Origin: Candidatus Woesearchaeota archaeon
Lineage (GTDB): Archaea; Nanobdellota; Nanobdellia; Pacearchaeales; GW2011-AR1
Assembly: GCA_964601175.1 (NCBI GenBank)
Contig: CAZRMJ010000002.1
Location: 5,842-69,841 of the forward strand
DNA: 64,000 bases
Reading direction: 5' to 3'
Positions 26,247 through 62,671 of this stretch are shown piece after piece. The position numbers and the translations under genes are program-made. The notes beneath the pieces are model-generated. The model saw nothing but the letters and a program-made list of their open reading frames with translations. It was not told the origin of the DNA and ran no database searches. Each line of letters opens with the position of its first letter. Positions within the stretch are counted from its first letter, which is position 1.

Positions 26247-27299
26247 CTAAATTAGTTTTCTATTTAAGTTTAGTACTTCACCCTTATAATCTTCTGCGCT
26301 TTTTGCTCTGTTCAACACATCATTTACTTCATTGAGAGTCTCGTCAATTCTTGTGCCTTCGAAACCGAATCCCAGTTTTGATCCATAGAATTTTAGAACA
26401 TTCAGGAATTCATATACTGTACTAAGCCTTAGCCTCCATTCAGAAGGCATTGATTCCATATTTGCCTGCTCAAGCCTTGAAGCAAGAGTAACTCTTTCAT
26501 AGCATTCTGGAGTCCAAGAATGATCCGGAACCTCTATCTTTCCAGATCCCCTCATTTGCTCGGGAGCTTCATAACGAAGAGGGTTGTTTACGCTAAAATA
26601 ACTCTGGGTGGCACCAAGTAATCTAGCCATCAACTGTAATTTCGCCTGTGGAAAACTGCATGACAGCTCTAGAGCACTTCCATCTTGGTATCTCCTTAAA
26701 AGTTTTTCAAGAACATCTCTTGAAAAAGCGTGTGCTGTTGCAGCAACATCTGTCAATCCTTCATCAAATGGCAAGTGCAGGGAGTAATGATGGTTGATTA
26801 TACTCTCTGTGAGAACTAGAGAAGTATGATGCGTATTAGTTGCGCTTGGGGATCTTCCGACTATTGTCGTAGTTCCATCTATTGTTTGGCCACTTATTCT
26901 TTCTAACATCTCTATGGTCTCATCAGGATAATATGCCAAGCCCATAGAAAACCTATCCGAATCCATATAAAATATTACAGGGGCTGATGAAGATTCAAGT
27001 CCAAGCTTTAAAGATTGGATATGATTTCTTTCAATGCCATTTTCTCCTTCTCTGAGAGGTTGTGCTGACTCTGCCAATAAATTAAAATTTGCAGATGCAA
27101 ACATGTATATATCTGAGGGATTTAGCATATCTCCCCTAGTTTTATCAGTAGCACTGATACACCACTGCAATCCTGACCCTGATAGTAGGGGCTCGATATG
27201 TCTGATAGCCTCAAGTGTTGAAGATTGGGGTTCATGCATTGTTGAAGAAATTACAACTTTACCGGCAATCCTTTTTAGCCTCTCTGTGTATTCATTCAT
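26247..27299 (-). CDS. Hypothetical protein, compositionally atypical (GC-richer), possible GT-A-like with DxD motif
   Basis: 350 aa ORF. Noticeably higher GC and a K-poor, R/L/S-rich protein compared with its neighbours. Contains VIFYMDSDRF (DxD-like). No family recognised from sequence alone. Confidence 0.5.
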   Translation of the reverse strand: MNEYTERLKRIAGKVVISSTMHEPQSSTLEAIRHIEPLLSGSGLQWCISATDKTRGDMLNPSDIYMFASANFNLLAESAQPLREGENGIERNHIQSLKLGLESSSAPVIFYMDSDRFSMGLAYYPDETIEMLERISGQTIDGTTTIVGRSPSATNTHHTSLVLTESIINHHYSLHLPFDEGLTDVAATAHAFSRDVLEKLLRRYQDGSALELSCSFPQAKLQLMARLLGATQSYFSVNNPLRYEAPEQMRGSGKIEVPDHSWTPECYERVTLASRLEQANMESMPSEWRLRLSTVYEFLNVLKFYGSKLGFGFEGTRIDETLNEVNDVLNRAKSAEDYKGEVLNLNRKLI

Positions 27300-27383: not shown

Positions 27384-28262
27384 ATGAATCCCCGAGTAAT
27401 TGTTTTCGGTTCCACAGGGTTGATTGGCTCCAACGTGCTTAAATCTTTAAGAGATCATGAGTTTAATGCTGAAGGAACCTCTAGAAGTGGGAAATATTCT
27501 ACCTCAAAGTTAGATATTACTAGAAGAGAAGACTTAACTGATTTTTTAAACTCTCGCCACCCTGAGGTCATCGTTAATTGTGCTGGAGTAGTAGGAGTCA
27601 ATGAATGCAACAGAGCTCCCTATGATTCTCTAGAAGTTAATACTTCTTTTGTTGGGAATATCTCAAGGTACTGTTCAGATAATGGTGCCAAGCTAGTTCA
27701 TTTATCCACTGTTGCAGTCTTTGATGGCAATAAGAAAACTCCTTATGAAGAAAAGGATCATCCAGATTTCCTTCAAGGGAATTTATACAATATAACTAAG
27801 GCAACAGCCGAAGCCATTGCAAGTTTAGTTCCAGATAATGTAATAATAAGAGTGGGAGATACTTATGGACTTTCTGCATTGCCTGAGAGGACTATTGGAG
27901 GAAGCGTATTTAGATATGCGTTTAATCAGTTGAAAAGTGGAAATGTTCTTGGAGCTTTTAAGGGGGTTATCACTAATCAAACTCTTCTTCAGGATATAGG
28001 ATCCTATGTCTGTTCATTGATTGAATCTGGGTTTTCTGGAAAAATAAATCTTGGAGGCGAGAGAGTTGATATCAGACAATTTTTTGACATGATTAAATCT
28101 ACATTCAACTTGCCTGGAGAAGTAATTGATGCTGAGTTGCCAAGTAATTATCAATCAAATCGTGCGCTTAATTTAAGTACAATGGAAAAGGAGGGCTTTG
28201 TAGTCAGACCTGTTGCTGAGGGTTTGGGAACTCTAGAAGATTATTTAAAAGCACAAAATTAA
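27384..28262 (+). CDS. NAD(P)-dependent sugar-nucleotide reductase/epimerase, RmlD-like (dTDP-4-dehydrorhamnose reductase family)
   Basis: 292 aa; N-terminal Rossmann VIVFGSTGLIGSNV. Confidence 0.65.
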   Translation: MNPRVIVFGSTGLIGSNVLKSLRDHEFNAEGTSRSGKYSTSKLDITRREDLTDFLNSRHPEVIVNCAGVVGVNECNRAPYDSLEVNTSFVGNISRYCSDNGAKLVHLSTVAVFDGNKKTPYEEKDHPDFLQGNLYNITKATAEAIASLVPDNVIIRVGDTYGLSALPERTIGGSVFRYAFNQLKSGNVLGAFKGVITNQTLLQDIGSYVCSLIESGFSGKINLGGERVDIRQFFDMIKSTFNLPGEVIDAELPSNYQSNRALNLSTMEKEGFVVRPVAEGLGTLEDYLKAQN

Positions 28263-28278: not shown

Positions 28279-29817
28279 ATGGTTCAAAATTTATCTTGGA
28301 AAAAATGGAATAGAGGAGATCCCCACCTAATAAATCGTATTCAATGGGATAGTAAGGAAATTGATATGCTCCATAAAGTACTCGAGTCTGATTGGTTTGG
28401 ATATGGGCCTGTGAATGAACAGTTTGAGAAGGAATTTTCTAAATTTATTGGGGTGGATCATGTTAACTTAACCAATAGTGGTTCTTCCGCAATTCAGGTT
28501 GCAATTGAGAGCCTCATGAAGCTTGGAAGGTTAAAACCAGGAGATTATGTCTTACATCCCATAACAACTTTTCAAACGAGTATTTCTTCTGCTTCATTTT
28601 TGGGGCTCATCCCTGTGTTCATAGAGACTAAACCAAATACTTATGTTGTGGACCCAAAACAGGTTGAAGATGCTATCGAGAAGATCCCTGAAATAAAGGG
28701 GTTAATACTCCCTCATCTTCTAGGAAATATACCTGATATGAAAAGAATAATAAAAGCCCTTAATGGAAGAGTTCTGATTGAAGACTGTTGCGATACGTTG
28801 GGGGGTTATTACGAAGGAAGGCATGTGGGTTCTTTTGGAGACTATGCTGCATATAGTTTCTATGGATCTCACCATATAACCACTGCAGGAGTTGGAGGAG
28901 CAATAGCAACTAAAGATAAAGAATTCGCGGAAATATCTAAGAGTTTAATTTTTTGGGGGAGAGATTTTGAAAATAGTCAAGGATTCCTTAATAGATATAC
29001 TTACTTAACACAAGGAACTGATAGTCAAATGAGTGCGATTCAGGCAGCTTTTGGCCTTGGTCAAATTGAAAGACTTCCGAGATTTATTAGAGAGAGAAAA
29101 ATACAATTTAATGAAATAGATGAACTCTTTAGAAAGGTAGATTATTTCGAATTACCTGAAACCGTGCCTGGAGCGGATCCTAGTTGGTTTGCATACCCAT
29201 TCATAGTAAAAGAATCTGCCCCTTTTACTAGAGAACAATTTGCGGATTATTTGGCTAAAAATAAAGTTGAAGTTAGACCAATTATGTGCGGGAATATTCT
29301 CAAACAAAAACCTTGGAAAAAAGCAAAATATGTTCAATTTAATTCTACTAATCCCGTTGCAGATAAAATTGAGTCTAATGGTATGTTTATCCCTTGTTGG
29401 GGTATGAGTCCTGAACAAAAAGAAGATTATTATAAGATACTAACTGAATTTTTTGCATCCGTACAACCTAATTTCATTCAATCTTCACAAATTAAGATTA
29501 CCAAACTTGATCCTGTTGAAGTTGTTACTACTTTAGGCTATGCATTATCTGGAGATTTTATTAATGCACAGGAAAAAATTAGAGAAATTATTGAGAAAAG
29601 AGCAATCCCTTATACCCACCTAATTAAAGCAATTCAAACAGAGATTTGGAATTTGCCCATTGGTACTGAGATTAAGGTTAAACTTATAGAAGCGACTGGA
29701 GAAGTAGAATTCAGGATAAATAATGGAAGCGATCAATTTATTCAGCTGACATCTTTACTTTCTTCATTTGTCTTAGCCGGCCTTACCACCCAAAAAATAA
29801 ATCAATATTCTAGATAA
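28279..29817 (+). CDS. DegT/ColD-family PMP-dependent NDP-4-keto-6-deoxyhexose 3-dehydratase-like enzyme, with extra ~120-aa C-terminal domain
   Basis: The N-terminus (WDSKEIDMLHKVLESDWFGYGPVNEQFEKEFSKFIG) and the active-site block YSFYGSHHITTAGVGG align with ColD/E1 dehydratases (SFYSHHIATMEGG). His occupies the position of the usual PLP-Lys. Confidence 0.7.
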   Translation: MVQNLSWKKWNRGDPHLINRIQWDSKEIDMLHKVLESDWFGYGPVNEQFEKEFSKFIGVDHVNLTNSGSSAIQVAIESLMKLGRLKPGDYVLHPITTFQTSISSASFLGLIPVFIETKPNTYVVDPKQVEDAIEKIPEIKGLILPHLLGNIPDMKRIIKALNGRVLIEDCCDTLGGYYEGRHVGSFGDYAAYSFYGSHHITTAGVGGAIATKDKEFAEISKSLIFWGRDFENSQGFLNRYTYLTQGTDSQMSAIQAAFGLGQIERLPRFIRERKIQFNEIDELFRKVDYFELPETVPGADPSWFAYPFIVKESAPFTREQFADYLAKNKVEVRPIMCGNILKQKPWKKAKYVQFNSTNPVADKIESNGMFIPCWGMSPEQKEDYYKILTEFFASVQPNFIQSSQIKITKLDPVEVVTTLGYALSGDFINAQEKIREIIEKRAIPYTHLIKAIQTEIWNLPIGTEIKVKLIEATGEVEFRINNGSDQFIQLTSLLSSFVLAGLTTQKINQYSR

Positions 29818-29847
29818 ACTTAAATAAGAGCCTTTTTCTATGAGCTT

Positions 29848-30786
29848 ATGAAAAAAATACTAATCACAGGAGGATTGGGATTTATAGGAAGCCATCTTGC
29901 AAGAGAAGCTGTAAAGAAGGGATTTGATGTAACTATTTTATCTATTTCGGATAAAAAATTGAACAATATTGAAGATTTTAAGGATAAAGTAAAGCTAATC
30001 ATAAAAGATATAAAAAATATATCTGCAGAAGATGTTGCAGATAAAGATCAGATATACCATCTTGCAAGCACAGTAGATAACTATGCAGTTAAAGAAGGCA
30101 GACCTTATGAAGACATAGAAATTAATTGCGTGGGTACTATTTCGCTTTTAGAAGCTTGTAAAAATTTTAATCCTGCGGCTAAAATCTTCCTTGCTAGTAC
30201 ATTCTTTGTTAATGGAAATGTTGATAAAATCCCTGTTGGTCCCAGTGCTCCATGCAACCCTCTTGGATTATATGGAGCTACGCGCCTTGCTGCAGAGCAT
30301 TTTTTTCACATATATCATAAAGTATTTGGATTAAATGTTGTTATTGCCAGATTCACCAATGTCTTTGGAGATTATGAGCAAGGGTCTAACAAAAAGAAAG
30401 CTGGTTTCAATTATATGATAAATCAAGCAGTAATCGGAGAAGAGCTACACCTTTATAATAATGGAGACTTCTTTAGAGATTATATCTATGTGGATGATGT
30501 AGTTAGTGCTTGCATGATTATAATGGATAAAGGAGAAACTGATAAAATATATTATGTTGGTAGAGGAGAATTTGTCAAATTTAAGGTATTAATAGACATT
30601 ATCAAAAACAATATTCCTTCATTAAAAGTTAAAGCGATCATGCCACCTGATTTTCATAAACAGGTAGGAATAATAGATTTTGTATGTGACAACTCAGAGT
30701 TAATTAAACTAGGTTGGAGACCACAAGTATCCTTAGAAGAAGGAATTAAGAAGACAATAGAATTTTATCAAAGCCGTAAAACATAG
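29848..30786 (+). CDS. NAD-dependent epimerase/dehydratase (extended SDR) family protein
   Basis: 312 aa; MKKILITGGLGFIGSHLA Rossmann motif and YxxxK-type catalytic region. Confidence 0.75.
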   Translation: MKKILITGGLGFIGSHLAREAVKKGFDVTILSISDKKLNNIEDFKDKVKLIIKDIKNISAEDVADKDQIYHLASTVDNYAVKEGRPYEDIEINCVGTISLLEACKNFNPAAKIFLASTFFVNGNVDKIPVGPSAPCNPLGLYGATRLAAEHFFHIYHKVFGLNVVIARFTNVFGDYEQGSNKKKAGFNYMINQAVIGEELHLYNNGDFFRDYIYVDDVVSACMIIMDKGETDKIYYVGRGEFVKFKVLIDIIKNNIPSLKVKAIMPPDFHKQVGIIDFVCDNSELIKLGWRPQVSLEEGIKKTIEFYQSRKT

Positions 30787-30814
30787 ATTTATTAATCGTT
30801 TTTTATCTTAAATT

Positions 30815-31627
30815 TTGATGGATGTTTCTATCATAGTGCCTGCATATAATCCGAATAAAGATATACTGGATATGTTGACTGAATCGGTTAAATCTCAAAA
30901 ATTTTCTGGAAAAGTTGAATTTATTATAGTAGATGAAAAAAAAGGATTCTCTACTCAGATAAATATTGGAATAAGAAAAGCAAAATACGGGATAGTAGTT
31001 GAACTTCCTCAGGATTGTGTGCCTAAAAATGAAAATTGGTTAGAAAATTTAGTTTCTCCATTTAAAGATAAAAAAGTCGTTGCATCCGTATCTAGAATAG
31101 AATATCCTAAGGAATATTGGGATAATTTTAGTTACCTTACTAAAGGAATCATGATAAAAGAAAAGGGCGTTATTACTTCTTCCCTTGATGGAAAAGGTGG
31201 CGCTTACAGGAAGAGCACTATTGAATCCATCGGAATGTTTGACGAAAAGAAATTTTTATCTGCGGGAGAAGATTACGACACCTACATAAAAATAAAGGAT
31301 AAGGGGATTATTGCTTATCCTGCTGGGGCTCAGATAGTCCATTACCACCCTACTAATTTTTTGCAGAGATTAAGAAAACATTACCAATATGCTAATGGAT
31401 ATGGAGCATTAGTCAAGATACATGGAAAAAATATGACTAAGTGGTGGGCAGGAATTTTAAAAGCAATACCTTTGTTTGGCCTGATAACGTATCCTATAAG
31501 TTATCCTTGGAAAAAAGGAGGCATTTCAATATTCCCTGCATATATTGCCGCATCTATAATGGATCATTTTTATTATGTCCCTGGATTCTGGAAAGGCTAT
31601 GTAAATGGTAAACAAACCGTAAGATAA
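30815..31627 (+). CDS. GT2 glycosyltransferase
   Basis: VSIIVPAYNPNKDILDMLTESVKSQ...FIIVDE is GT-A. Confidence 0.75.
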   Translation: MMDVSIIVPAYNPNKDILDMLTESVKSQKFSGKVEFIIVDEKKGFSTQINIGIRKAKYGIVVELPQDCVPKNENWLENLVSPFKDKKVVASVSRIEYPKEYWDNFSYLTKGIMIKEKGVITSSLDGKGGAYRKSTIESIGMFDEKKFLSAGEDYDTYIKIKDKGIIAYPAGAQIVHYHPTNFLQRLRKHYQYANGYGALVKIHGKNMTKWWAGILKAIPLFGLITYPISYPWKKGGISIFPAYIAASIMDHFYYVPGFWKGYVNGKQTVR

Positions 31628-31628
31628 A

Positions 31629-32147
31629 ATGAAAAAACTTCACATAGGTTGCGGGAAAGATATTAAAAAAGGATTTATCAATTTAGATTCGGTTAAATTG
31701 CCTGGGGTTGACGTAGTCCATAATCTCAATAAATATCCTTGGCCATTTAAGAAAGATCATTTTGATTATGTCTATGCATCTCATGTATTGGAGCATCTAA
31801 ACAGCATCATTGATCCAATGGAAGAGATTTGGAGAATAACTAAACCAGGTGCAAAAATATCAATAGAAGTTCCAATCTTTCCGAGCATAGGATCTGTTGC
31901 AGATCCTACGCATAAAGTTTTTTACACTTATTTGACTTTTGATTATTTTAGGCCGGAAGATGGACTCAATTATTACTCTAAGGCTAGATTTAAGATATTG
32001 TCAAAAAAAATTATTTTTCAAAAACCATTTTTTTTATTTGAATGGATTTTTAATATAAGTAGCAAGATGCAAAAATTTTATGCATTGTATTTATCTTTTA
32101 TTATTCCGGCATTTGCATTAAAAATTGAGCTTAAAACGTTAAAATGA
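31629..32147 (+). CDS. SAM-dependent methyltransferase (type 11)
   Basis: ...DYVYASHVLEHLNSIIDPMEEIWRITKPGAKISIEVP. Confidence 0.7.
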   Translation: MKKLHIGCGKDIKKGFINLDSVKLPGVDVVHNLNKYPWPFKKDHFDYVYASHVLEHLNSIIDPMEEIWRITKPGAKISIEVPIFPSIGSVADPTHKVFYTYLTFDYFRPEDGLNYYSKARFKILSKKIIFQKPFFLFEWIFNISSKMQKFYALYLSFIIPAFALKIELKTLK

Positions 32148-33106
32148 GATACTCATTAAAAGATATATCTGTAATAATTGCTACGTATAATCGTGAAAAA
32201 GATCTTGAGATCACAATAAAGTCTTTTGAGAAAAATATCTCCAAAATATGCGAGTTGATAATTGTAGATCAAAGCACAAACGATAAAACAAAAAACTTAT
32301 TTAATAAAAATAAAAATCCGAAAATAAAATACCTTTATTCTAAAAAACCGTCTTTGACTCTGGCAAGAAATTTTGGAATAAAGAAATCTTCTAAAAACTC
32401 TAAAATTTTGATATTTTTAGATGATGATGTCTCACTATCAAAAGACTATTTTGACAAAATAATTGAAGTTTTTAATAAATTTGATTATGCGGTCGGAGTC
32501 TCTGGATATTACCTTCCTAAAATTAGGATTGAAAAATTTGAAAATATGTTTAGAAAATTATTTCTAATAGAAAATTATGGAATTAATACTGCTAAAGTAT
32601 ATTCTCCATTCGGAGCACAATACCCCTCTAAATTGAATAAAATCATAAATGCTTCTTGGATTCCGGGGTTTAACATGGCCTATAAGAAAGAATCAATTAA
32701 AAATCAATTCTTTGATGAAAACTTTTTTAGATATGGGCTTGCCGAAGATTTTGAATTTAGCACCAGGTTAAACAAAATATATCCTGGAGGTTTATTCATT
32801 ACTCCTTATGCAAAAATAATTCATAGAGTATCAGATGTTGAAAGAATGCCCAAACCAAAACTAATTTATATGAATCAGGTAAATCACTTATACATACAGG
32901 CTAAAAATTTAAATGATTTTAGGGGGATAGTCTCTTTGGGTTTAGTTCTTTTTTCAATTTCAGCGCTACATATTTTGAAGTCCCTACTAAGACCAAATAA
33001 ACAAAATCTTCTCAAAATGAAGATTTATTTTAAAGCAGTTTATTATTGTTTCAAAAGATTACACTTAATAAGAAAAGGATTTTTAGATTTGCCCCAAAAA
33101 ATTTAG
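32144..33106 (+). CDS. GT2 glycosyltransferase
   Basis: ISVIIATYNREKDLEITIKSF...LIIVDQSTND...FLDDD. Confidence 0.75.
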   Translation: MRYSLKDISVIIATYNREKDLEITIKSFEKNISKICELIIVDQSTNDKTKNLFNKNKNPKIKYLYSKKPSLTLARNFGIKKSSKNSKILIFLDDDVSLSKDYFDKIIEVFNKFDYAVGVSGYYLPKIRIEKFENMFRKLFLIENYGINTAKVYSPFGAQYPSKLNKIINASWIPGFNMAYKKESIKNQFFDENFFRYGLAEDFEFSTRLNKIYPGGLFITPYAKIIHRVSDVERMPKPKLIYMNQVNHLYIQAKNLNDFRGIVSLGLVLFSISALHILKSLLRPNKQNLLKMKIYFKAVYYCFKRLHLIRKGFLDLPQKI

Positions 33107-33853
33107 TTATTTTATTGCTTCCACAGTGTAACCCATAGTCCATTCTTTATTTCTGTCTAAAAAATCCAGACTTGAAAGAACTAAGGGAAAAATTATTTGT
33201 GTAAATGGAAATCCAATTATTTTTAGAGGATATGAAATAATCTTGGGAGCTTTATTATTCAAAAGTCCATTAAACTTAATCATGTCTGCTAGTGCTGAAA
33301 AATAACCCCCCATTGGAGAAACTTTGAACTTTTTGAATCCTGATTTTTTTAATAGGCTCTCTAAGCCATATTTGGTAAAATAGAAGAAGTTGTATGGTGC
33401 TTGATGAATCATAAATTGTTGAGGGGTGGTTAAAAAAAGTTTTCCATTTGGTTTTAAGATTCTATAAAATTCATTTATTACATTTTCAGGATTTTCAACA
33501 TGCTCAAGAACTTCAGTAGAAATTACCGAATCATAATAACTTGATTTCTTAGGAATCTTTTCTAAATTGCATACAAAATCCAGAATTTTATGTGGGTCGC
33601 TAAAATCAGTGGCTTCGTATTTTGCGTGGTTAAAAAATTTCTTATATGGGCACGGTCCAGCTCCTGCATCTAAAACTTTTGAGTTTTGAATAATTTTTTT
33701 ACTAGATATTCGAACAAATAATTCAATATATTTTCTTCTTGGATTTGTATATAACCTTAAGTTTTTAGGAAATATATCGATTATGGACTGCAACCATATA
33801 GGCCTTCCAGTAATTATATTTCTTCGAGACATATTATTAGCAAGTAATGACAT
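33107..33853 (-). CDS. Class I SAM-dependent methyltransferase
   Basis: VLDAGAGPCPY (motif I) ... ISTEVLEHVENPENVINEFYRILKPNGKLFLTTP. Confidence 0.75.
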   Translation of the reverse strand: MSLLANNMSRRNIITGRPIWLQSIIDIFPKNLRLYTNPRRKYIELFVRISSKKIIQNSKVLDAGAGPCPYKKFFNHAKYEATDFSDPHKILDFVCNLEKIPKKSSYYDSVISTEVLEHVENPENVINEFYRILKPNGKLFLTTPQQFMIHQAPYNFFYFTKYGLESLLKKSGFKKFKVSPMGGYFSALADMIKFNGLLNNKAPKIISYPLKIIGFPFTQIIFPLVLSSLDFLDRNKEWTMGYTVEAIK

Positions 33854-35436
33854 ATTTAAATATGATCTTACTAGTTATGGCAATGGATAAAGAAGCTGAA
33901 CTAAATAGCACATTAAGAACAGTAGTTAAAAGCTCATTTTTAGTATTCTTTTCGATAATACTCTCTAAATTGTTAAGTTATGCTTATAGAATAATTATAG
34001 CGAATCGTTATGGTTCTGAGTCTTATGGTAGATTTTCATTGTCATTAGTAGTTGTGGGCATAATTATAGCTATTGCTTCTTTTGGATTGCACGATGGATT
34101 ACTTAGATACATTTCATTCTATAGGGGGAAAAAAGAATTTGGAAAGATAAGATTTATCATAAATAAATCTATGAAAATTCTTCTTTTTACGAGCATAATA
34201 TCTTTCATAGGATTATATTATCTATCAGAAATTATCTCTACAAGAATCTTCCATGATTCTTCATTGACCCATTATTTGAAGTTTATTAGTTTAGTTCTTC
34301 CATTTAGCATATTCGCAGGGGCTTTTCTCGCAATAATAAGAGCTTTCGAAAAAGTTGGAACATATTCATTTTTAGTCAATTTTTTACACAATTTCTTTAA
34401 AGTTTTATTACTTGTTTTAGCTATTTTTATAGGGATTGGAGAAAACAGCATAGTTCTTTCATATATCTTGTCTTATGCACTTTTGCTTTTTGCAGCATAT
34501 TTATTTTTTGTAGCTTATGTTAAAAATAAGTATTTGTCAAAAAAAGATATTACCACTAAAGAGAAAAGCAAAATATCTTTAGAACTTTTGAATTATTCTT
34601 GGCCAGTTATATTTTCAGGAATATTTTTTAGCCTCTTCTTCTGGATAGACACATTAGTTTTAGGATCAAACCTTGATGCTGCAAGCGTAGGAATTTATTC
34701 TGCAGCAGTATTGCTTGTTGGCCTATTCAGTTTTGCTCAAGATTTGTTTATCCAACTATTTGTACCACTTATATCTAGAAACTTATCAATTGGTAATAAA
34801 GAAGTAATAAAAGAAGTTTCCAAGCAAGTTTTCAAATGGGTCTTTATAATTAATATTTTCATTTCGCTGCCATTAATTATTTTTCCTGAAAAGATAATTA
34901 GCCTATTCTTTAAGGGGGAATTTATCGCTGCATCTACCGCACTTAGAATTCTTTCTATCGGAGCAATATTATCTGGGTTTATAGGCCTTTTAACAGGGCT
35001 AATAAATGCTATTGGAAGAACTAAAAGAGTATTTGTTTACTATATGATATTTTCGGCTATAAATTTTGTAATTGATGTTTTATTTGTAAGAAAATATGGG
35101 TTAGAAGGTGTGGCGCTTGGAACTAGCATAACTTGGATATTATTTACCCTTACACTTTATATAGAAGTTAGAAAGTTGTATGGATTTTACCCAATTAGAA
35201 GAGCTTTTGCTAAAATAGCACTTGCAGGCATTACCTCAGGATTATTACTTTGGACAATAGGCATTAGATTTATTTCAGGAAGAGTATCTACAATAATGGT
35301 CCTTTTTGTGTTTGGGTTAGTTTACCTAGCTCTAATTGGAGTGCTTAGAGTTTTAGACTATAGGGACATGGACATAATAAAAGTAATGAAAAATAAAATT
35401 CTTTCCTCGAAAATGAATTTTGGAAAAAATGATTAA
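33847..35436 (+). CDS. Polysaccharide biosynthesis protein / Wzx-like flippase (MOP superfamily)
   Basis: 529 aa, ~14 TM. The start may be at an internal ATG (~33877-33883) to avoid overlap with the upstream minus-strand gene. Confidence 0.65.
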   Translation: MTYLNMILLVMAMDKEAELNSTLRTVVKSSFLVFFSIILSKLLSYAYRIIIANRYGSESYGRFSLSLVVVGIIIAIASFGLHDGLLRYISFYRGKKEFGKIRFIINKSMKILLFTSIISFIGLYYLSEIISTRIFHDSSLTHYLKFISLVLPFSIFAGAFLAIIRAFEKVGTYSFLVNFLHNFFKVLLLVLAIFIGIGENSIVLSYILSYALLLFAAYLFFVAYVKNKYLSKKDITTKEKSKISLELLNYSWPVIFSGIFFSLFFWIDTLVLGSNLDAASVGIYSAAVLLVGLFSFAQDLFIQLFVPLISRNLSIGNKEVIKEVSKQVFKWVFIINIFISLPLIIFPEKIISLFFKGEFIAASTALRILSIGAILSGFIGLLTGLINAIGRTKRVFVYYMIFSAINFVIDVLFVRKYGLEGVALGTSITWILFTLTLYIEVRKLYGFYPIRRAFAKIALAGITSGLLLWTIGIRFISGRVSTIMVLFVFGLVYLALIGVLRVLDYRDMDIIKVMKNKILSSKMNFGKND

Positions 35437-35473
35437 AAGAAAAACTTATAAATTGTATATTTAGTGAGATTTT

Positions 35474-36217
35474 ATGAGATATAATGTTCTTGTTACCGGA
35501 TCTAGTGGAAGACTTGGAAATTCGTTGATTTCTAACAAATCAGATAATTTAGCTTTTTTGACTCCTTCGAGAGAAGAACTCGATATTACTAATAAATCTA
35601 ATGTAATGAATTATTTTAAAAAAAACAAAATTGATGCAGTTATTCATTGTGCTGCACTTACTGACATGAAATTGTGTGAAACGAATCCTAATCTTGCAAT
35701 AGAAACCAATTCTTCTGGAACTGCTTATCTTGTTGAAGTTTGCAATAACTCCAAAATAAGATTCATATACATTTCTACAGATTATGTTTATCCTTGTATT
35801 GATGGAAATTATGGTGAAAATTCTGAGGTTAAACCCTTTAATGTTTATGCATGGACAAAGTTTTTAGGTGAACTTTTTGTGATGAATGTTGAAAATCATT
35901 GCATCATTAGAACAAGCTTTTTTGACCCTAATAACATTCCTTTTGATACATCTTTCACAGATTCTTTTTGCTCAAAAATTCCAGTCCAAGAATTATCTAA
36001 TGAAATAATTAAAATTCTAGAAGGAAATTTTATCGGAACCATAAATGTTGGACAAGATCGAATTAGTTTATACGACCTATATAAAAAGCATAAACCTTCA
36101 ATAAAACCCGAATTACTTTCCGATTTGAAGAGTCCAATGAAAAGGGCAATTGATTCTTCATTAAATCTTAGAGTATTTAAAGAATTAAAGGCTGGAGGTT
36201 ATAAAAATGGCAATTGA
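35474..36217 (+). CDS. RmlD-like NAD(P)-dependent sugar-nucleotide reductase (short form)
   Basis: 247 aa; VLVTGSSGRLGNSL Rossmann; ...YISTDYVY. Confidence 0.6.
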   Translation: MRYNVLVTGSSGRLGNSLISNKSDNLAFLTPSREELDITNKSNVMNYFKKNKIDAVIHCAALTDMKLCETNPNLAIETNSSGTAYLVEVCNNSKIRFIYISTDYVYPCIDGNYGENSEVKPFNVYAWTKFLGELFVMNVENHCIIRTSFFDPNNIPFDTSFTDSFCSKIPVQELSNEIIKILEGNFIGTINVGQDRISLYDLYKKHKPSIKPELLSDLKSPMKRAIDSSLNLRVFKELKAGGYKNGN

Positions 36218-36588
36218 AGGAGTAATTTATGAAAAAGTTGGAGATCTTAGTAATAAAGAGGGTTCTAGAAGAATTACTACCATCATGTCTGGAAATAATG
36301 AATTTGATATTGGAGAAGTTAGATTAGTTCTAGTAGATAATAATGGGCTTCTTGGAGGACACTGGAGAGAATATCCTGAAGTGTGGGGATTTTTAGGTGA
36401 AGCTACTATTATATTGGAAGATATAGAAACTAAATAAAGAAAGGTTTATCAGGCAGAGAATGGCACTCGTATATTTATACCTGCGAGAGTCGCTTCTAAA
36501 ATTGAAGCATTTAGAGGTACCTCTATTGTGACTTGCTCACCTAAAAGTGATAGAGAAAGACAGACCCATAGATATGAATTTGTTTAGA
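36207..36588 (+). pseudogene. Cupin-fold sugar-modifying protein interrupted by an in-frame TAA at 36435-36437
   Basis: ORF 36207-36437 (76 aa, ...GGHWREYPEVWGFLGEATIILED) continues in the same frame after the TAA as RKVYQAENGTRIFIPARVASKIEAFRGTSIVTCSPKSDRERQTHRYEFV*. Together this is a ~126-aa cupin-like protein. Confidence 0.45.
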
Positions 36589-38262
36589 TTAATTATTTTT
36601 AAAAAAGAATCTTAAAATGTGATCTGAAATTCTAATCCATTTTTTATTTTTTGTTCTTTTTATAGAATTTACTAAGATATATTTTAAAATTTGAGGATTC
36701 ACAAAAATAGAATAAAATGCTAATTTGTATAAATAGGAGTCAGTAAATAATTTTTTTTGATTCCTTAGATTAACTAAATTCATTTCAAATAATCCAAATA
36801 AAATGTGGTCCGTTCCGACTACAGGTATTTTCTTTATTTTATGGGTTTTTATTAGAGGTATGGAGATAAATGAAGTGGTTTCTTTTTGAATATTAAATTC
36901 TTTTTTATACAATTGTTTAAATTTCTCAAAATTGGTTAATAGATAATCTTTTCTTACCATTAATTGAGACACATCAAGATTATCTTTAATATAAGAGCCA
37001 TTATTTTGAAGGTAATTATATGCATAATATAATGATAATGAAGCATAATCTCCTATGATTTTTGAGCTAAGTAAAAGATCACAAACTGATATTGGCTTTC
37101 CAATTAATTCCATTGAATAGATCTGCACATAATCCCTATAGGGTAAAATCTCATATCCTTTGTTTTTGAAACCAACATATTTGTAATCTGATATTTTTTT
37201 CTTTACATGCCCATATCCTTTTTTTAAATCATCTTGATCTAAATAAACCGGTTTTTCAGCAAGATATTTTCTGCTGATATTTCCATAGAGAGGTTTACGA
37301 TTTTTCTCTATTGCTTTGTAAGCTTCGGTTAGAAGACCAAGATTTGAAAAACGCTTGACTATTATTTTGTATGCGTTTTCGGCTATTTTTTCTCTCTCCT
37401 TTTCATTTTTTAAATAATAATTAATTTTTTTGTATAATTCATCTTCATTTTTAAATGAAGCAAAATCCTTTCCTTCCGTAAATTTTGAGAAATATCCTTC
37501 AACATATTCAGTTAATGCAAATGATTTGCATGCATTTACTGCAAGAGATCTTTCTAAAACATGAGGCACACTAAAAAAGTTTTGTGAGAAACATAAATTT
37601 ATTTTAGATTCATTGATTATTTTTACAATTTCCTCTTCTGGAATTTTGCCCAAATAATGATCTTTAAACTCTGGGTAATCATCCCACCCTGCGCCGCCTA
37701 AAACAAAATTTACTCCTTTTTTTAATAAAAACCTCATATATTTTAGTCTATCTCCTTTAGGAGTTCCAACAAATAAAACGTCGTACTTCTTTTTTACATT
37801 TAATGGCTTAAATTTACCTGTATCTGCGCCCAATAAATCAAACCAAGGTATTCCGTAAGAGTCATATCTTTTAGTAAATTGAAGTTGGCTAATAAATTGA
37901 TAGTCTATTGCGTAAGAATAAGGAATTGTATAATTATCAAATTTAATGTCGTCATCTCCATTCCAATGAGTCACTTTTACATTTGGAAGAATTTCTTTTA
38001 TTTTTATAAGCGTCTCGGGATAGAATTCATCCCAAACTAAGAATAGATGAATATAATCTGGCTTTTCTTTCTGGAGTAATTTGAGAAACTTCTCATTCAT
38101 TATTTTTTTACCGTGTTTGTAAGTTTCTTCTTGAGGATCAAAATTTATTACTTCTGAGAATATTTTTCTAAGAGGGATATTATAAGCTTGATTTATTATC
38201 CAATAAGGGTTGTTTATTGACCAACATGCCAATAACATTTTTTTATTTATTAGACTCATCAT
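36589..38262 (-). CDS. Putative glycosyltransferase, CgeB/DUF3880-like (GT-B related)
   Basis: 557 aa soluble protein with an ...VLFVGTPKGDRLKYMRFLLKKGVNFVLGGAGWDD... core resembling the CgeB-family glycosyltransferase domain; low-confidence family call. Confidence 0.45.
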   Translation of the reverse strand: MMSLINKKMLLACWSINNPYWIINQAYNIPLRKIFSEVINFDPQEETYKHGKKIMNEKFLKLLQKEKPDYIHLFLVWDEFYPETLIKIKEILPNVKVTHWNGDDDIKFDNYTIPYSYAIDYQFISQLQFTKRYDSYGIPWFDLLGADTGKFKPLNVKKKYDVLFVGTPKGDRLKYMRFLLKKGVNFVLGGAGWDDYPEFKDHYLGKIPEEEIVKIINESKINLCFSQNFFSVPHVLERSLAVNACKSFALTEYVEGYFSKFTEGKDFASFKNEDELYKKINYYLKNEKEREKIAENAYKIIVKRFSNLGLLTEAYKAIEKNRKPLYGNISRKYLAEKPVYLDQDDLKKGYGHVKKKISDYKYVGFKNKGYEILPYRDYVQIYSMELIGKPISVCDLLLSSKIIGDYASLSLYYAYNYLQNNGSYIKDNLDVSQLMVRKDYLLTNFEKFKQLYKKEFNIQKETTSFISIPLIKTHKIKKIPVVGTDHILFGLFEMNLVNLRNQKKLFTDSYLYKLAFYSIFVNPQILKYILVNSIKRTKNKKWIRISDHILRFFFKNN

Positions 38263-38331
38263 TTGCCAAGAAAATCTTGATTTAAAAACATTGTTGAATC
38301 TGTCAACAATCTTTATAAATCATTAAAATGC

Positions 38332-39558
38332 ATGATATTTATGATTAGAGCTCAATGTCTTGTATGTTCTTCTAATGAAGTTACGGATATAATTGATCTT
38401 GGAATGCATCCATTTGCAGATACTTTTGTTCCTGAATCTAAAGAAAGCGATAATGATGTGATTTACCGCCTGGTATGTAGCCTATGCTTAAAATGCGGGC
38501 ATGTTCAAAATAAATATGAAACAGATCCTATCAAAAGATATTCTCAGATTGATTACTCTTACACTTCTTCTAACTCTCAATTTGCAAGAGATCACTGGGA
38601 TAAATATGCTAAAGAAATCTCTGCTGAAATCGGATTAGATAAAGGATTAGTGATTGAAATAGGCTCTAATGACGGTTATCTTTCTGAGCAATTTCTTAAA
38701 AAAGGAAACAAAGTATTAGGAGTTGATCCTTCTCCTTATATGGCAGACTTAGCAAAACAAAGAAACATCTCAACTATTGTAGGCTTATTTGGATCAAAAT
38801 ATGTAGATGAAATTTTAAGTAAATATGGGAAGGCAGATTTAGTTTGTGCGAATAACGTTTTCAATCATTCAGATAATCCTTCTGATTTTGTAAAAGCAGT
38901 TTCTGAAATTTTGAAGGATGATGGGAGTTTTGTATTTGAACAACCATATTGGATAGATACTCTAAAGACTGGAAAATTCGATCAAATCTATCATGAACAT
39001 GTAAGTTATTTTACTGTTAAATCTGCTAAGGAGCTTTTAGAAAGGGCTGGATTGAAGATAAAGTCTTCAGAAATTGTAAACTACCACGGAGGATCTTTAA
39101 GAATAATTGCTCAAAAAAGCGATAATGTAAAAGAAAGCGATAATGTAAAAGAAATGATCTCTAATGAGGAGAGTTATGGTGCTTTTAAAATAGAGACTTA
39201 TAAAAAGTTCATGGAATCTTTGAAAATTCAAAGAAGTAAATTTATGCAAAAAATACATCATTTAAAGGAGAAGAATATTCCTCTAATTGCGGTAGGTGCA
39301 GCTGCAAAAGGAAATACATTCCTTAACTTTTATGGCTTAGATAACACAATTATTGATTATGTAACAGATGCATCTCCGCATAAGAAAGGCAAATATACTC
39401 CTGCCACAAGAATACCCATAGTAGGAGATGAGATATTCTCCAAATATGAAGATGTGTATGCCATAATTTTATCTTGGAATATTGCAGATCAACTTAAGAA
39501 TATATTATCTAGATATAATGATAAAATAAATTTTATTTCTCCTGTGCAGAGCATATGA
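38332..39558 (+). CDS. NDP-hexose C-methyltransferase-family protein (TylC3/EryBIII-like: Zn-ribbon + SAM MTase + C-MT C-terminal domain)
   Basis: N-terminal CLVC...CLKC zinc ribbon, VIEIGSNDGYL motif I and a C-terminal domain; contains an 18-bp tandem duplication (SDNVKESDNVKE). Confidence 0.65.
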   Translation: MIFMIRAQCLVCSSNEVTDIIDLGMHPFADTFVPESKESDNDVIYRLVCSLCLKCGHVQNKYETDPIKRYSQIDYSYTSSNSQFARDHWDKYAKEISAEIGLDKGLVIEIGSNDGYLSEQFLKKGNKVLGVDPSPYMADLAKQRNISTIVGLFGSKYVDEILSKYGKADLVCANNVFNHSDNPSDFVKAVSEILKDDGSFVFEQPYWIDTLKTGKFDQIYHEHVSYFTVKSAKELLERAGLKIKSSEIVNYHGGSLRIIAQKSDNVKESDNVKEMISNEESYGAFKIETYKKFMESLKIQRSKFMQKIHHLKEKNIPLIAVGAAAKGNTFLNFYGLDNTIIDYVTDASPHKKGKYTPATRIPIVGDEIFSKYEDVYAIILSWNIADQLKNILSRYNDKINFISPVQSI

Positions 39559-39980
39559 TAGAAAGAATATATTCAAAGGTAAATCCTTCTATACTCCTGC
39601 ATATTTTACATACTAATTCTGGGCTTAATCAAAAAATAGAGGATAAAAAAATTCATAGTTTGACTGATCCGGAACATTTTTTGCAAGCAATGTTTTTTGA
39701 AATGCCTGCTGGAACGAAAAGCAACCCTCATAAACATAACCTTCAAGAAAGAAGAACCACCCATACGCATGAAGCACTTTTGCTTTTGAAAGGGTCTATT
39801 GAATTAAATATTTATGATATTGATGACAGTTTTGTTGAGACGAAGATTCTGAATGAAGGAGACTGCTATGTTCTTATTAATGGGGGGCATAGCATAAAGA
39901 CCATTACAGATTCTAAATTTTTTGAGTTTAAAAATGGACCTTACTACGGAAGCGAGAAAGATAAAACAAGCATTAATTGA
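39555..39980 (+). CDS. Cupin-domain protein (candidate sugar-nucleotide epimerase/ketoisomerase)
   Basis: 141 aa; PHKHNLQERRTTHTHEALLLLKGSIELNIYD resembles cupin motifs (His-x-His...Glu). Confidence 0.5.
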   Translation: MIERIYSKVNPSILLHILHTNSGLNQKIEDKKIHSLTDPEHFLQAMFFEMPAGTKSNPHKHNLQERRTTHTHEALLLLKGSIELNIYDIDDSFVETKILNEGDCYVLINGGHSIKTITDSKFFEFKNGPYYGSEKDKTSIN

Positions 39981-40012
39981 AATTAAGTTGTTTAAATATT
40001 CCAAAATTATTC

Positions 40013-41110
40013 TTAATTTATCATACCCATAGACTTCAACATCTCTTTTGCTTTTTCTATATAAAACCCTTTTTGGTTGTTATTGTCTTTATCAACTAGG
40101 ATTAATCCATTTTCTTCGAATTGTTCCTTTAGATCTGCTTCGAGCATTGTATGAACTAATTCTTTGAATTTTATGGAAGGTACCCATCCCAAAAGCCTCT
40201 TTGCTTTTGAAGCATCTCCTAATAAAGCGTCAACTTCTGCAGGTCTTTTGTATCTATCTGAAACTTCAACATATTTTTCATAGTCTAGTCCTAAAAGAGA
40301 AAATGCTTCTTGCAAAAACTCTCTAACTGTATGAGTCTCCTCTGTTGCAATAACAAAATCCTCAGGCTCATGATGTTGAAGAATAGCCCACATTGCTTTA
40401 ACATATTCCTGTGAATGCCCCCAATCTCTTTTTGCATCTAAATTGCCCATAACTATTTTTTTTGCGTGTCCCATGACTATTCTGGATAATTCTCTTGTAA
40501 TTTTACGAGTTGCAAAATTAATTCCCCTTCTAGGAGATTCATGATTGAATAGTATTCCGTTACAAGCAAATAAGCCATATGCCACCCTATACAATCTTGT
40601 GAAATTAAAAGCTGCAACTTTTGATACTCCATAGGGGCTTTGAGGTTTGAATGGAGTTTCCTCATTTTGAGGAGGAGGTGATGCTCCAAACATTTCAGAA
40701 GAGGATGCTTGGTAATATTTGCATTTTAGTCCTGAATGATGTATTGCATCTAATAGCCTTAATGTTCCTAGCGCATTTATATCAAAGGTTGTTGCAGGAT
40801 TTTCAAAACTTATGCCTACATGACTTTGAGCAGCTAAATTATATACCTCATCCGGTTTTACTTTTTCCAAAATATTTCTTAAACTAGAAGCATCTGTAAG
40901 ATCTGCATGGTAACAAACAAACTCTTTTTCTGAGTCTTGGCTATAATTCATCTTCTTTAGAAGATGTTCTATTCTCCCGCTATGAATACTACTTGAACGC
41001 CTAACTATTCCCCTTACATAATATCCCTTATCTAGCAAAAATTCTGCCAAATACGAGCCATCTTGTCCATTTACTCCTGTAATCAGAGCTACTTTTTTTC
41101 CATTTAACAT
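40013..41110 (-). CDS. gmd: GDP-mannose 4,6-dehydratase
   Basis: 365 aa; N-terminal KKVALITGVNGQDGSYLAEFLLDKGYYVRGIVRRSSS is near-identical to the canonical Gmd pattern. Confidence 0.9.
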   Translation of the reverse strand: MLNGKKVALITGVNGQDGSYLAEFLLDKGYYVRGIVRRSSSIHSGRIEHLLKKMNYSQDSEKEFVCYHADLTDASSLRNILEKVKPDEVYNLAAQSHVGISFENPATTFDINALGTLRLLDAIHHSGLKCKYYQASSSEMFGASPPPQNEETPFKPQSPYGVSKVAAFNFTRLYRVAYGLFACNGILFNHESPRRGINFATRKITRELSRIVMGHAKKIVMGNLDAKRDWGHSQEYVKAMWAILQHHEPEDFVIATEETHTVREFLQEAFSLLGLDYEKYVEVSDRYKRPAEVDALLGDASKAKRLLGWVPSIKFKELVHTMLEADLKEQFEENGLILVDKDNNNQKGFYIEKAKEMLKSMGMIN

Positions 41111-50230: not shown

Positions 50231-50240
50231 TTGAATCTCA

Positions 50241-50312: not shown

Positions 50313-50347
50313 TTTATATTTCTTCAGGAAGGAGCGTTTTAAAGCTT

Positions 50348-51033: not shown

Positions 51034-51075
51034 ATGAACCCGTAATGGATTAAGATGTTTTAAAATTAATCTAAA

Positions 51076-62641: not shown

Positions 62642-62671
62642 ATTTATAACGAGAATTACCCTACGCTTTTT

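Follow-up and report, generated by a model that had tools for sequence, protein, structure and literature searches.

Does a protein-glycosylation island of a DPANN archaeon encode an enzyme of bacterial type that takes the 3-hydroxyl off an activated 6-deoxy sugar and, if so, which nucleotide would carry that sugar? The question is raised by a 512-aa ORF in a 64-kb stretch of DNA (64,000 nucleotides, hereafter the window) from a Candidatus Woesearchaeota archaeon, which a sequence-only reading had placed in a GDP-linked, colitose-like 3,6-dideoxyhexose pathway within an archaeal AglB glycan island. The island itself was borne out by an AglB gene that is 44% identical to the AglB beside the dehydratase in a related locus, L005. 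The three ORFs on which the reading rested (dehydratase, SDR and Gmd) are all present (Table 1), although the ColC-type label given to the SDR fails. The reading had also called such a sugar unusual for archaea, and the archaeal N-glycan sugars that a 2024 review lists include no 3,6-dideoxyhexose.

Table 1. Features of the glycan island, with positions in the window.
Feature	Position	Strand	Remarks
AglB oligosaccharyltransferase, STT3 domain	14294-16984	+	PF02516 5e-11; WWDYG at residue 600
DPANN-only 350-aa protein, DSD motif	26247-27299	-	weak GT-A fold match
RmlD-family reductase	27384-28262	+	directly upstream of dehydratase; PF04321 3.8e-29
Dehydratase ORF	28279-29817	+	512 aa
Predicted PMP-dependent NDP-4-keto-6-deoxyhexose 3-dehydratase catalytic domain	28279-29463	+	residues 1-395; PF01041
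His198 codon (CAC)	28870-28872	+	putative catalytic His replacing Schiff-base Lys
Linker and RFC small-subunit domain III (collar)	29464-29817	+	in-frame fusion to dehydratase
Extended SDR (SDR-A1)	29848-30786	+	312 aa; likely 4-ketoreductase or epimerase partner
GT2 glycosyltransferase (GT2a)	30815-31627	+	PF00535
Small methyltransferase-like gene	31629-32147	+	Pfam; same gene run as dehydratase
Second GT2	32144-33106	+	Pfam; same gene run as dehydratase
Wzx/MATE-type flippase	33847-35436	+	PF01943
Short RmlD-like reductase	35474-36217	+	PF04321
NDP-sugar 3-C-methyltransferase	38332-39558	+	Pfam Methyltransf_13/14
WbuC-like cupin	39555-39980	+	TIGR04366 1.6e-9, under cut-off
Gmd, GDP-mannose 4,6-dehydratase	40013-41110	-	365 aa; PF16363 9e-124
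PMT_2 membrane protein	41153-42964	-	run ending in Gmd
RmlD-like reductase	42988-43818	-	run ending in Gmd
Second C-methyltransferase	43815-45044	-	run ending in Gmd
GT2	45055-45843	-	run ending in Gmd
SDR, Cj1427-like	45916-46992	-	run ending in Gmd

Residues 24–379 of the 512-aa protein match Pfam DegT_DnrJ_EryC1 (PF01041, E 5.2e-70), and the likeness to ColD and E1 noted earlier held in both sequence and structure comparisons. The best PDB match by sequence, rather than an ordinary sugar aminotransferase, was the 3-dehydratase E1 (3bcx; 8e-59, 203 bits, about 32% identity), and ColD was the next dehydratase (2gms; 5e-40, 141 bits, about 26% identity). In the AF2 model, pLDDT exceeded 90 across the DegT part, and a Foldseek search of the PDB with this model ranked E1 first (1e-36; TM 0.87 normalised by E1 length), followed by ColD (3e-30). 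By both sequence and fold, the protein is nearer to E1/RfbH of the CDP-glucose series than to ColD; it scored 256 bits against a cut-off of 423 for NCBIfam RfbH and is therefore not orthologous to a characterised enzyme.

The motif AAYSFYGSHHITTAGVGG occupies residues 190–207. In the phmmer alignment, 'sfypaHhit' of E1 pairs with 'sfygsHhit' of the query, so that His198 shares a column with E1 His220; the same column reads K in the E1 H220K mutant chain 3bb8, which places His198 at the Lys/His220 position. The His188 block of ColD ('sfyshhiat') is in register with it, and SFY[GA]SHH, His198 included, is invariant across 53 relatives. The registered alignment thus has His, and no Lys, where aminotransferases carry the PLP Lys, as the sequence-only reading had proposed, and this replacement is the defining change of 3-dehydratases (PMC8987622). 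We consider the ORF product a probable PMP-dependent NDP-4-keto-6-deoxyhexose 3-dehydratase. That it is instead an ordinary sugar aminotransferase, or a paralogue without activity, is highly improbable: the protein does belong to the DegT aminotransferase superfamily, and a sugar transaminase (7b0m, 3.6e-41) ranks third among its PDB matches, but His replaces the Schiff-base Lys in 53/53 relatives, the top matches by sequence and fold are two crystallised 3-dehydratases, and the catalytic domain is under strong purifying selection (dN/dS 0.13) in conserved synteny.

A 4-Cys 2Fe-2S motif is found in E1 (AscC/DdhC/RfbH of Yersinia and Salmonella, a CDP-6-deoxy-L-threo-D-glycero-4-hexulose 3-dehydrase) and in SpnQ, but not in ColD (WbdK, the GDP-4-keto-6-deoxy-D-mannose 3-dehydratase of the colitose pathway); SpnQ further needs ferredoxin or flavodoxin reductase pairs (PMC8987622). 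In the query, the sequence alignment shows Phe or gaps in the columns of E1 Cys251, Cys253 and Cys261, and the sole Cys that is invariant across the 53 relatives is Cys171. Pfam scans of the 64-kb window revealed no ferredoxin-reductase-type gene, and no E3-type reductase, the partner of E1, lies near the dehydratase. As judged from the alignments, the particular likeness to ColD appears limited to the absent Fe-S loop. Because the protein, like ColD, combines His for Lys with the lack of a cluster, and because no E3-type reductase is encoded nearby, ColD-type, reductase-independent chemistry with hydrolytic release and regeneration of PMP from glutamate would be expected.

On this basis we infer the following course. 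With His198 at the Schiff-base Lys position, a 4-keto sugar would condense with PMP, His198 would take the C4' proton and the 3-OH would leave; the sugar-enamine would then be released hydrolytically to give NDP-4-keto-3,6-dideoxyhexose and ammonia, and glutamate would restore PMP, amounting to ColD-type chemistry in an E1-like scaffold. C4 may subsequently be reduced, or epimerised and reduced, by the same-strand SDR-A1, after which GT2a would move the 3,6-dideoxyhexose onto a lipid-linked glycan and AglB would put that glycan on proteins. The enzyme class is known, and what is new is a cluster-less archaeal variant together with a lineage-specific fusion, not a new system; E1, by comparison, serves O-antigen rather than N-glycan synthesis and has no extra C-terminal domain.

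The clade of the dehydratase is almost confined to DPANN archaea (Pacearchaeota, Woesearchaeota and Nanoarchaeota), and its conserved unit, found in 11 loci, consists of dehydratase, SDR and GT2, with the SDR-A1 orthologue directly downstream of the dehydratase. At least 12 loci have a GT2a orthologue (54–61% identical) beside the dehydratase; GT2a is its most often conserved neighbour and a candidate transferase for the product sugar. Where dehydratases have a TDE motif, SDR-A1 carries STFF, and its YxxxK is replaced by Y-G-A-T-R; the catalytic Lys of SDRs is Arg in four of five orthologues, which makes its activity uncertain. It had been proposed as a ColC-type 5-epimerase/4-reductase, yet it reached only 55.7 bits against a GDPFucSynFcl cut-off of 500 and its best PDB match is Thermotoga UDP-glucose 4-epimerase, so that it is GalE/UXS-like rather than ColC-like.

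The nucleotide carrier may well be GDP, supplied through the island Gmd, and equally well dTDP, supplied by RmlA and RmlB encoded elsewhere; some other carrier is doubtful. The Gmd was correctly recognised as bona fide, since it clears the 415-bit cut-off of the NCBIfam equivalog TIGR01472 with 446 bits and has the catalytic motifs SSE and YGVSK. It is the sole 4,6-dehydratase in the window, where Pfam scans found no sugar-1-phosphate nucleotidyltransferase and where ManC, ManB, RmlA and RmlB are all absent. It lies 10 kb from the dehydratase on the opposite strand, as the last gene of a run whose C-methyltransferase and RmlD-like reductase could use up its product with no need for the dehydratase.

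Among 38 related loci of the DPANN clade, dehydratase orthologues (53–63% identical) lie beside RmlA/RmlB in 8 and beside Gmd in 3. It is accordingly quite conceivable, at little short of even chances, that the product is a dTDP-linked 3,6-dideoxyhexose made from dTDP-4-keto-6-deoxyglucose, with Gmd serving only the C-methyltransferase branch. In the 8 loci with RmlA/RmlB the dehydratase orthologues are 58–61% identical, and the RmlA, RmlB (or RmlB-RmlA fusions) and RmlC there pass NCBIfam equivalog cut-offs; RmlB and RmlA directly adjoin the dehydratase, in divergent orientation, in L006. L004 combines the dehydratase with RmlA/RmlB but no obvious reductase, a point against the course inferred above. 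The RmlD-family gene directly upstream of the dehydratase in the window (TIGR01214 97.5 bits, under the cut-off) has orthologues adjoining the dehydratase in L034 and in L009, where it separates the dehydratase from an RmlC/RmlB-RmlA set; it is missing from the sister strain L001 owing to an indel. In addition, E1, the nearest characterised relative, takes a gluco-configured substrate. Against a dTDP route, RmlA/RmlB are lacking not just from the window but also within 10 kb in the 11 loci with the dehydratase–SDR-A1–GT2a order, and no dTDP-specific 3-dehydratase without a cluster has been characterised (PMC8987622). The SpnQ group of actinomycete antibiotic pathways, likewise 3-dehydratases, acts on dTDP-4-keto-2,6-dideoxyglucose, and several orthologous loci suggest dTDP here too; unlike SpnQ, however, the query family lacks a 4-Cys site, and a 2,3-dehydratase is not encoded nearby.

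A GDP-L-colitose-type pathway as originally proposed, in which Gmd would make GDP-4-keto-6-deoxymannose, the His enzyme would act as ColD and the SDR as ColC, is unlikely. Two of its elements stand, namely the genuine Gmd in the island and the ColD-like absence of the Fe-S loop, and in L014/L044 an orthologue lies less than 4 kb from a Gmd that is 65% identical to that of the window. Yet there is no ColC-type partner, ManC and ManB are missing from the window, the dehydratase resembles E1 more than ColD, and the window Gmd belongs to a separate run outside the dehydratase gene run; elsewhere, unlike in the ColD pathway, orthologues pair with RmlA/RmlB. Moreover, every Gmd-bearing locus also carries a C-methyltransferase and a WbuC cupin. 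In L014/L044 both are again found together with Gmd and the dehydratase, and the PDB matches of the window C-methyltransferase (the first of the two in Table 1) include 4rv9 (1.3e-54), KijD1 and TcaB9.

The C-terminal extension, which had been left unexplained at about 120 aa, is real (about 117 aa, residues 396–512) and can be identified: it is the collar or oligomerisation domain (domain III) of an RFC small subunit. The match to Pfam Rep_fac_C (1.7e-11) exceeds the gathering score, PDB 1iqp RFCS is matched at 1.8e-11, and residues 407–500 correspond to positions 224–317 of 322 of the NCBIfam RFC small subunit (1.2e-16), the homology spanning approximately nt 29497 to 29778. In archaeal RFCS this helical collar is the domain by which clamp-loader subunits pack; here, by contrast, neither the AAA+ ATPase nor the lid domain is present and the collar is attached to a sugar enzyme. 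The tail occurs only in the window protein and in a 98%-identical metagenome copy (P0001, locus L001), whose independent origin shows that the fusion is no misassembly.

The RFC domain would most likely be an extra assembly or docking module with no replication function. There are weak signs that purifying selection retains it: dN/dS is 0.16–0.19, close to the 0.13 of the catalytic domain, with a synonymous excess at p = 0.004–0.012 from only 10–11 substitutions. In neutral simulations at 52–65% identity, in which foreign RFCs stood in for the actual parent, a 117-codon frame remained open in just 1–6% of runs (the DNA is 68% A+T), and the boundary of the fragment falls where RFC domain III begins. 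There is nonetheless a substantial possibility that the tail serves no function: a rearrangement may have fused a 3' piece of rfcS to the dehydratase gene, leaving a neutral remnant that has yet to decay. The tail is confined to one strain-level lineage, the relatives without it (about 400 aa long) number more than 100, and L021 is syntenic over 28279–39980 and lacks it. The tail is 52% identical to real DPANN RFCs, which are 81% identical among themselves, and it has lost 31 of the 82 positions whose conservation among them reaches 80%; inteins with homing endonucleases, present in many archaeal rfcS genes, could plausibly give rise to breaks and fragments. In the AF2 model the domain has a low pLDDT of 40–69, the alignment there being two sequences deep.

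Further genes of the island are shared with related loci. The methyltransferase-like gene and second GT2 downstream of GT2a are syntenic in L021 and L040, and the flippase and short RmlD-like reductase have equal-length orthologues in L018 and L021. The 350-aa protein has no Pfam or NCBIfam match and nine homologues among 5.8e9 proteins, and its family adjoins the dehydratase in at least seven loci. Its AF2 model (pLDDT 88) resembles MPGS, GpgS and GtrB in Foldseek (E 1e-5, TM about 0.4), which suggests that it is probably a divergent glycosyltransferase.

Judged by its domain and its active-site histidine, the predicted 512-aa enzyme (catalytic part, residues 1–395; C-terminal tail, residues 396–512) is a member of the PMP-dependent NDP-sugar 3-dehydratase class within the DegT family, which comprises E1, ColD and SpnQ. 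All three reading frames on which the sequence-only reading was built (the enzyme, the adjacent extended SDR, here SDR-A1, and Gmd; Table) are present. The DegT_DnrJ_EryC1 profile (PF01041, Pfam) matches residues 24–379 with an E value of 5.2e-70. The top match among all PDB sequences is the E1 dehydrase 3bcx (8.1e-59, 203 bits), with the E1 H220K mutant also at the top, followed by the sugar transaminase 7b0m (3.6e-41) and then ColD/WbdK 2gms (5.4e-40, 141 bits). In the PDB sequence alignments, SFYGSHHIT of the query lies opposite SFYPAHHIT of E1 and in the same register as SFYSHHIAT of ColD. Because the H220K chain reads SFYPAKHIT there, His198 falls in the column of the catalytic His220 of E1, the position of the aminotransferase Lys, and this is also the column of ColD His188; the proposed His-for-Lys hallmark is thus borne out, and His198 is invariant across an alignment of 53 relatives. 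The predicted structure (AF2), its full-length fold built from DegT homologues alone, has a pLDDT above 90 over residues 11–400 and matches both E1 and ColD with TM scores of 0.87–0.90 (normalised by target length), and in a Foldseek search with this model E1 (1e-36) and ColD (3e-30) outranked all aminotransferases except 7b0m.

Only three sugar 3-dehydratases are well characterised, all of them bacterial: E1, which acts on a CDP-sugar, contains a 2Fe–2S cluster and requires the reductase E3; ColD, which acts on a GDP-sugar without a cluster and has its PMP regenerated by glutamate; and SpnQ, which acts on a dTDP-sugar and contains a 2Fe–2S cluster (PMC8987622). The query is E1-like in sequence but lacks the cluster loop, the E3 partner and an RfbH-level score. 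Opposite the cluster-binding loop of E1 (RD-C251-Y-C253-APG-C-DNT-C261) it has RDFENSQ and gaps, that is, the loop is deleted or replaced. Cys171 is the sole invariant Cys in the alignment of 53 relatives and every other column holds at most 72% Cys, so that the four-Cys 2Fe–2S site is absent. No E3 (AscD-type) reductase or CDP-glucose gene (RfbF/RfbG) was found among the window ORFs (Pfam/NCBIfam scans) or among the genes of loci L001–L005 that have precomputed Pfam listings, and the Pfam scans of the window showed no ferredoxin-reductase-like gene; for related loci beyond L001–L005 the screen covered a fixed panel of reference proteins. With 256.5 bits on the NCBIfam RfbH equivalog, below its cut-off of 423, the query is not an E1 orthologue. 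We infer ColD-type chemistry within an E1-like scaffold, the predicted enzyme being ColD-like in action, E1-like in looks and outside both orthologous groups. Relatives carry the automatic JGI label 'CDP-6-deoxy-D-xylo-4-hexulose-3-dehydrase', and the gene family is therefore not previously unseen.

The C-terminal extension reported from the sequence alone is real, but it is not unexplained. Rep_fac_C (PF08542, Pfam) matches residues 412–495 (1.7e-11; 44.8 bits against a gathering score of 23.6), the NCBIfam model 'replication factor C small subunit' matches residues 407–500 at model positions 224–317 of 322 (1.2e-16), and the Pyrococcus RFCS 1iqp matches the tail among PDB sequences (1.8e-11). 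By these matches the tail is exactly domain III of the replication factor C (RFC) small subunit up to its natural C terminus; Pfam and NCBIfam found neither the AAA+ ATPase module nor the lid domain of RFC in the query, whose N-terminal 395 residues are DegT. A mixed alignment (A2) of dehydratase homologues and RFC fragments was discarded, MAFFT having put all the RFC fragments within the DegT region. Among the best 120 homologues listed from a search of 5.8 billion proteins, only P0001, the 512-aa fusion protein of sister strain L001 (98% identical), has the same architecture, the remainder being about 400 aa long. The contig of P0001 stems from an independent JGI metagenome, so an assembly artefact is ruled out as the origin of the fusion. 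With the tail as sole query, phmmer searched 1.84 billion representatives exhaustively and gave 213 matches, with P0001 at 96% identity and, among the matches spanning most of the domain, no other above 58%; no other enzyme–RFC_C fusion occurred in the ten mid-length tail matches tested, nearly all of which were intein- or LAGLIDADG-containing RFCs. Inteins or LAGLIDADG domains are present in many of the retrieved RFC homologues, and in L022 (a 39.7-kb contig) the RFC small subunit forms two neighbouring ORFs 12 nt apart, of 162 aa (AAA+) and 150 aa (lid and Rep_fac_C), so that the gene is split or carries a frameshift. The tail is present in the window and L001 only, of 83 unique related loci. 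In L021, a Woesearchaeota contig syntenic with the window, the enzyme has 401 aa and stops a few residues past the point at which the query enters its tail. The junction has no flanking direct repeats, and upstream of it there is no RFC homology in other frames.

The tail may be a functional module or a relic yet to decay, and we consider the two readings close to even. The fusion genes of the window and L001 differ at 37 positions, with a dN/dS of 0.13 for residues 1–395 and 0.16–0.19 for the tail, where 6–7 synonymous substitutions stand against 4 non-synonymous ones (synonymous excess, binomial p = 0.012–0.004; few substitutions). Median identity to genuine DPANN RFC C termini is 52%, against 81% among those RFCs themselves; of 82 positions with at least 80% conservation in these RFCs, the tail retains 51. 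In a neutral, substitution-only simulation with the base composition of the window, in which foreign RFCs stood in for the parental one, 6% of runs at 65% identity and 1% at 52% preserved an open 117-codon frame. Both dN/dS and the frame simulation weakly favour selection on the tail, the counts being small. AF2 confidence is low for the tail in the model built from DegT homologues alone.

The window is archaeal: the closest relatives of most genes are in Pacearchaeota, Woesearchaeota or Nanoarchaeota MAGs, and runs of ribosomal-protein genes lie at both ends. SecY is followed by AglB, by a glycan island that extends over about 30 kb (~17–47 kb) and has lower G+C, and by SecD/F. The claimed AglB island is confirmed, with a flippase and glycosyltransferases in the neighbourhood of AglB, an arrangement shared by L005, L018, L021 and L044. 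A plus-strand run holds an RmlD-like gene, the dehydratase–RFC fusion, SDR-A1, the glycosyltransferase GT2a, a small methyltransferase-like gene and GT2b; two minus-strand genes separate these from the flippase, a short RmlD-like gene, a sugar 3-C-methyltransferase and a WbuC-like cupin; and a minus-strand run leads from an SDR through a GT2, a second C-methyltransferase, an RmlD-like gene and PMT_2 to Gmd. The two NDP-sugar 3-C-methyltransferases, only 32% identical to each other, are homologues of the D-mycarose 3-C-methyltransferase 4rv9, KijD1 and TcaB9; two such genes in an archaeal N-glycan island predict branched-chain sugars. One 769-aa ORF of L008 consists of a C-methyltransferase, 35% identical to each of the two window copies, fused to an SDR like the one that opens the minus-strand run, and this fusion indicates a functional link between the two corresponding window genes. 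Compared with L001, the window has a longer segment before the fusion gene (Table) and the RmlD-like gene there is missing in L001; DNA identity is 89.5% left of this indel and 96.5% over the dehydratase gene, which together suggest recombination inside the island.

Table. Coordinates of features in the window and, where named, in related loci
Feature	Coordinates	Strand	Remark
AglB	14294–16984		WWDYG motif
350-aa protein	26247–27299	−	
Indel segment	26974–28217		1243 nt
Indel segment, L001	6250–6704		454 nt
RmlD-like SDR	27384–28262	+	far under GDPFucSynFcl cut-off of 500 (NCBIfam)
Dehydratase–RFC fusion	28279–29817	+	
His198 codon	28870–28872	+	CAC
Segment syntenic with L021	28279–39980		
SDR-A1	29848–30786	+	
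GT2a	30815–31627	+	
SDR	35474–36217		far under GDPFucSynFcl cut-off of 500 (NCBIfam)
3-C-methyltransferase	38332–39558	+	
Gmd	40013–41110	−	
SDR	42988–43818		GDPFucSynFcl not listed (NCBIfam scan)
3-C-methyltransferase, second	43815–45044	−	
SDR opening minus-strand run	45916–46992	−	GDPFucSynFcl not listed (NCBIfam scan)
Mechanical ORF (methyltransferase)	50231–50977		TTG start
tRNA-Gly, tRNA-Arg, tRNA-Leu; 5S rRNA	50241–51329	−; +	
Tyrosine recombinase and GT2	61814–63562	+	
Surroundings of dehydratase–SDR pair, L002	3188–20126		
RmlB–RmlA ORF, L003	13957–15822		
C-methyltransferase–SDR ORF, L008	7028–9337	−	
RFC small-subunit ORFs, L022	377–1329		
Dehydratase and 387-aa ORF, L028	5107–7540		
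Dehydratase and 387-aa ORF, L029	9983–12416		

Of the GDP-L-colitose pathway, Gmd is present here. The gene is genuine, as had been claimed (TIGR01472, 446 bits against an equivalog cut-off of 415), and lies 10 kb from the dehydratase on the opposite strand. A ColC-type partner (a GDP-fucose-synthase-type 5-epimerase/4-reductase) is absent among the window SDRs scanned by NCBIfam; as to a GDP-mannose supply (ManC/ManB), Pfam scans of the 64 kb found no NTP_transferase domain. The suggestion that SDR-A1 is ColC-type did not hold: it scores 55.7 bits on GDPFucSynFcl against the cut-off of 500, and its top PDB matches are GalE/UXS-type. As hidden 4,6-dehydratases, SDR-A1 (STFF where dehydratases show TDE) and the SDR opening the minus-strand run (closest PDB entry 6vo6, motif SSCS) were both rejected; there is no 4,6-dehydratase besides Gmd in the window. 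Gmd has plausible consumers of its own, since the minus-strand run that it closes also holds the second C-methyltransferase and an RmlD-like gene. At residue 146 of SDR-A1, Y-G-A-T-R replaces the catalytic YxxxK, the last residue being Arg in 4/5 orthologues and Lys in L008.

We gathered 105 related loci, of which 83 are unique and 38/83 fall within the clade at ≥53% identity. SDR-A1 lies directly downstream of the dehydratase on the same strand in 11 loci and GT2a is found in at least 12. RmlA/RmlB occur in 8 loci, above the TIGR01207 and TIGR01181 cut-offs and fused in some, and RmlC with a different SDR in about 6. Three loci have Gmd (the window plus L014 and L044, which are syntenic with each other), and in all of them a C-methyltransferase and a WbuC cupin accompany it. 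A neighbour-joining tree places the window enzyme as sister of the SDR-A1 group, one member of which, L004, has RmlA/RmlB two genes off; the closest relative from outside the strain lineage, L034 (63%), is arranged like L009, where RmlC and an RmlB–RmlA fusion come next. The family is linked more often to dTDP-glucose genes and less often, yet here, to Gmd. In L003 one ORF comprises RmlB (dTDP-glucose 4,6-dehydratase) and RmlA (glucose-1-phosphate thymidylyltransferase), both halves above NCBIfam cut-offs, and L007 and L009 have homologous ORFs of the same length (621–629 aa). On the 648-kb Pacearchaeota contig L002, several radical-SAM/B12-binding and SPASM proteins and a 566-aa thiamine-diphosphate enzyme surround the dehydratase–SDR pair, perhaps a hint of further sugar tailoring. 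An apparent 1-kb gene interruption in L028 and L029 was rejected, the tblastn match having crossed from the His-dehydratase gene into a 387-aa ORF directly 3′ of it, which may be a second DegT-family gene.

In the proposed pathway, a 4,6-dehydratase would yield an NDP-4-keto-6-deoxyhexose, from which the His198 enzyme with PMP would eliminate the 3-OH to give an NDP-4-keto-3,6-dideoxyhexose, glutamate restoring PMP; family membership, the His and the absence of a cluster argue for this step. SDR-A1 would reduce C4, as its conserved adjacency suggests, with YGATR for YxxxK as a caveat. GT2a would put the sugar on the lipid-linked glycan, the flippase would translocate it and AglB would transfer it. 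Speculatively, the two C-methyltransferases could use the same 4-keto intermediates to make branched sugars, an idea suggested by L014 and L044. Attachment to a host is how DPANN archaea live, and their surface glycans are therefore probably important for contact. The widespread DPANN clade combines E1-like sequence with ColD-like cluster absence, and its place in AglB islands, often near RmlA/B/C, predicts 3,6-dideoxyhexoses on archaeal surface proteins; by its predicted activity it would offer a reductase-independent 3-deoxygenase for chemoenzymatic sugar synthesis. 3,6-Dideoxyhexoses are not among the listed archaeal N-glycan sugars (PMC11407970), and most sugars of the rare group, in which the 3,6-dideoxy sugars tyvelose, paratose and abequose are put, are absent from Archaea (PMC7725333). 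Our literature search turned up no publication on 3-dehydratases or 3,6-dideoxyhexoses of Archaea.

The only really odd feature is the RFC-domain fusion, a small, clean natural case of a metabolic enzyme capturing a replication-protein domain, and its weight is limited by its restricted distribution. A joint reading, which we hold tentatively and think rather unlikely, is that the clamp-loader collar domain now serves a 3-dehydratase as an exapted assembly or docking module under selection; this dehydratase would be of a fourth mechanistic type (E1-like, cluster-less, possibly dTDP-specific) and would be the source of the first 3,6-dideoxy sugar, perhaps one with a C-methyl branch, in an archaeal N-glycan.

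The 350-aa protein, which adjoins the His-dehydratase in at least 7 loci, has no Pfam/NCBIfam match and only 9 homologues in 5.8 billion proteins; both the host loci and the homologues with a name come from DPANN. It shares the conserved motifs DSD, RSPxAINTH and LRYEAPEQMRG, and its AF2 model (pLDDT 88) has only weak GT-A matches (mannosyl-3-phosphoglycerate synthase, GpgS and GtrB, TM ~0.4). As an E3-like redox partner it was rejected in view of this weak GT-A glycosyltransferase fold match and the DSD motif. Beyond the island, three tRNA genes lie beside a lone 5S rRNA gene, and a mechanically called methyltransferase ORF overlaps tRNA-Gly, its true start probably being further downstream. 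Just past a run of ribosomal-protein genes, a tyrosine recombinase (Phage_integrase, 4.6e-46) lies directly 5′ of a GT2 gene, an order repeated in L024 and L025.
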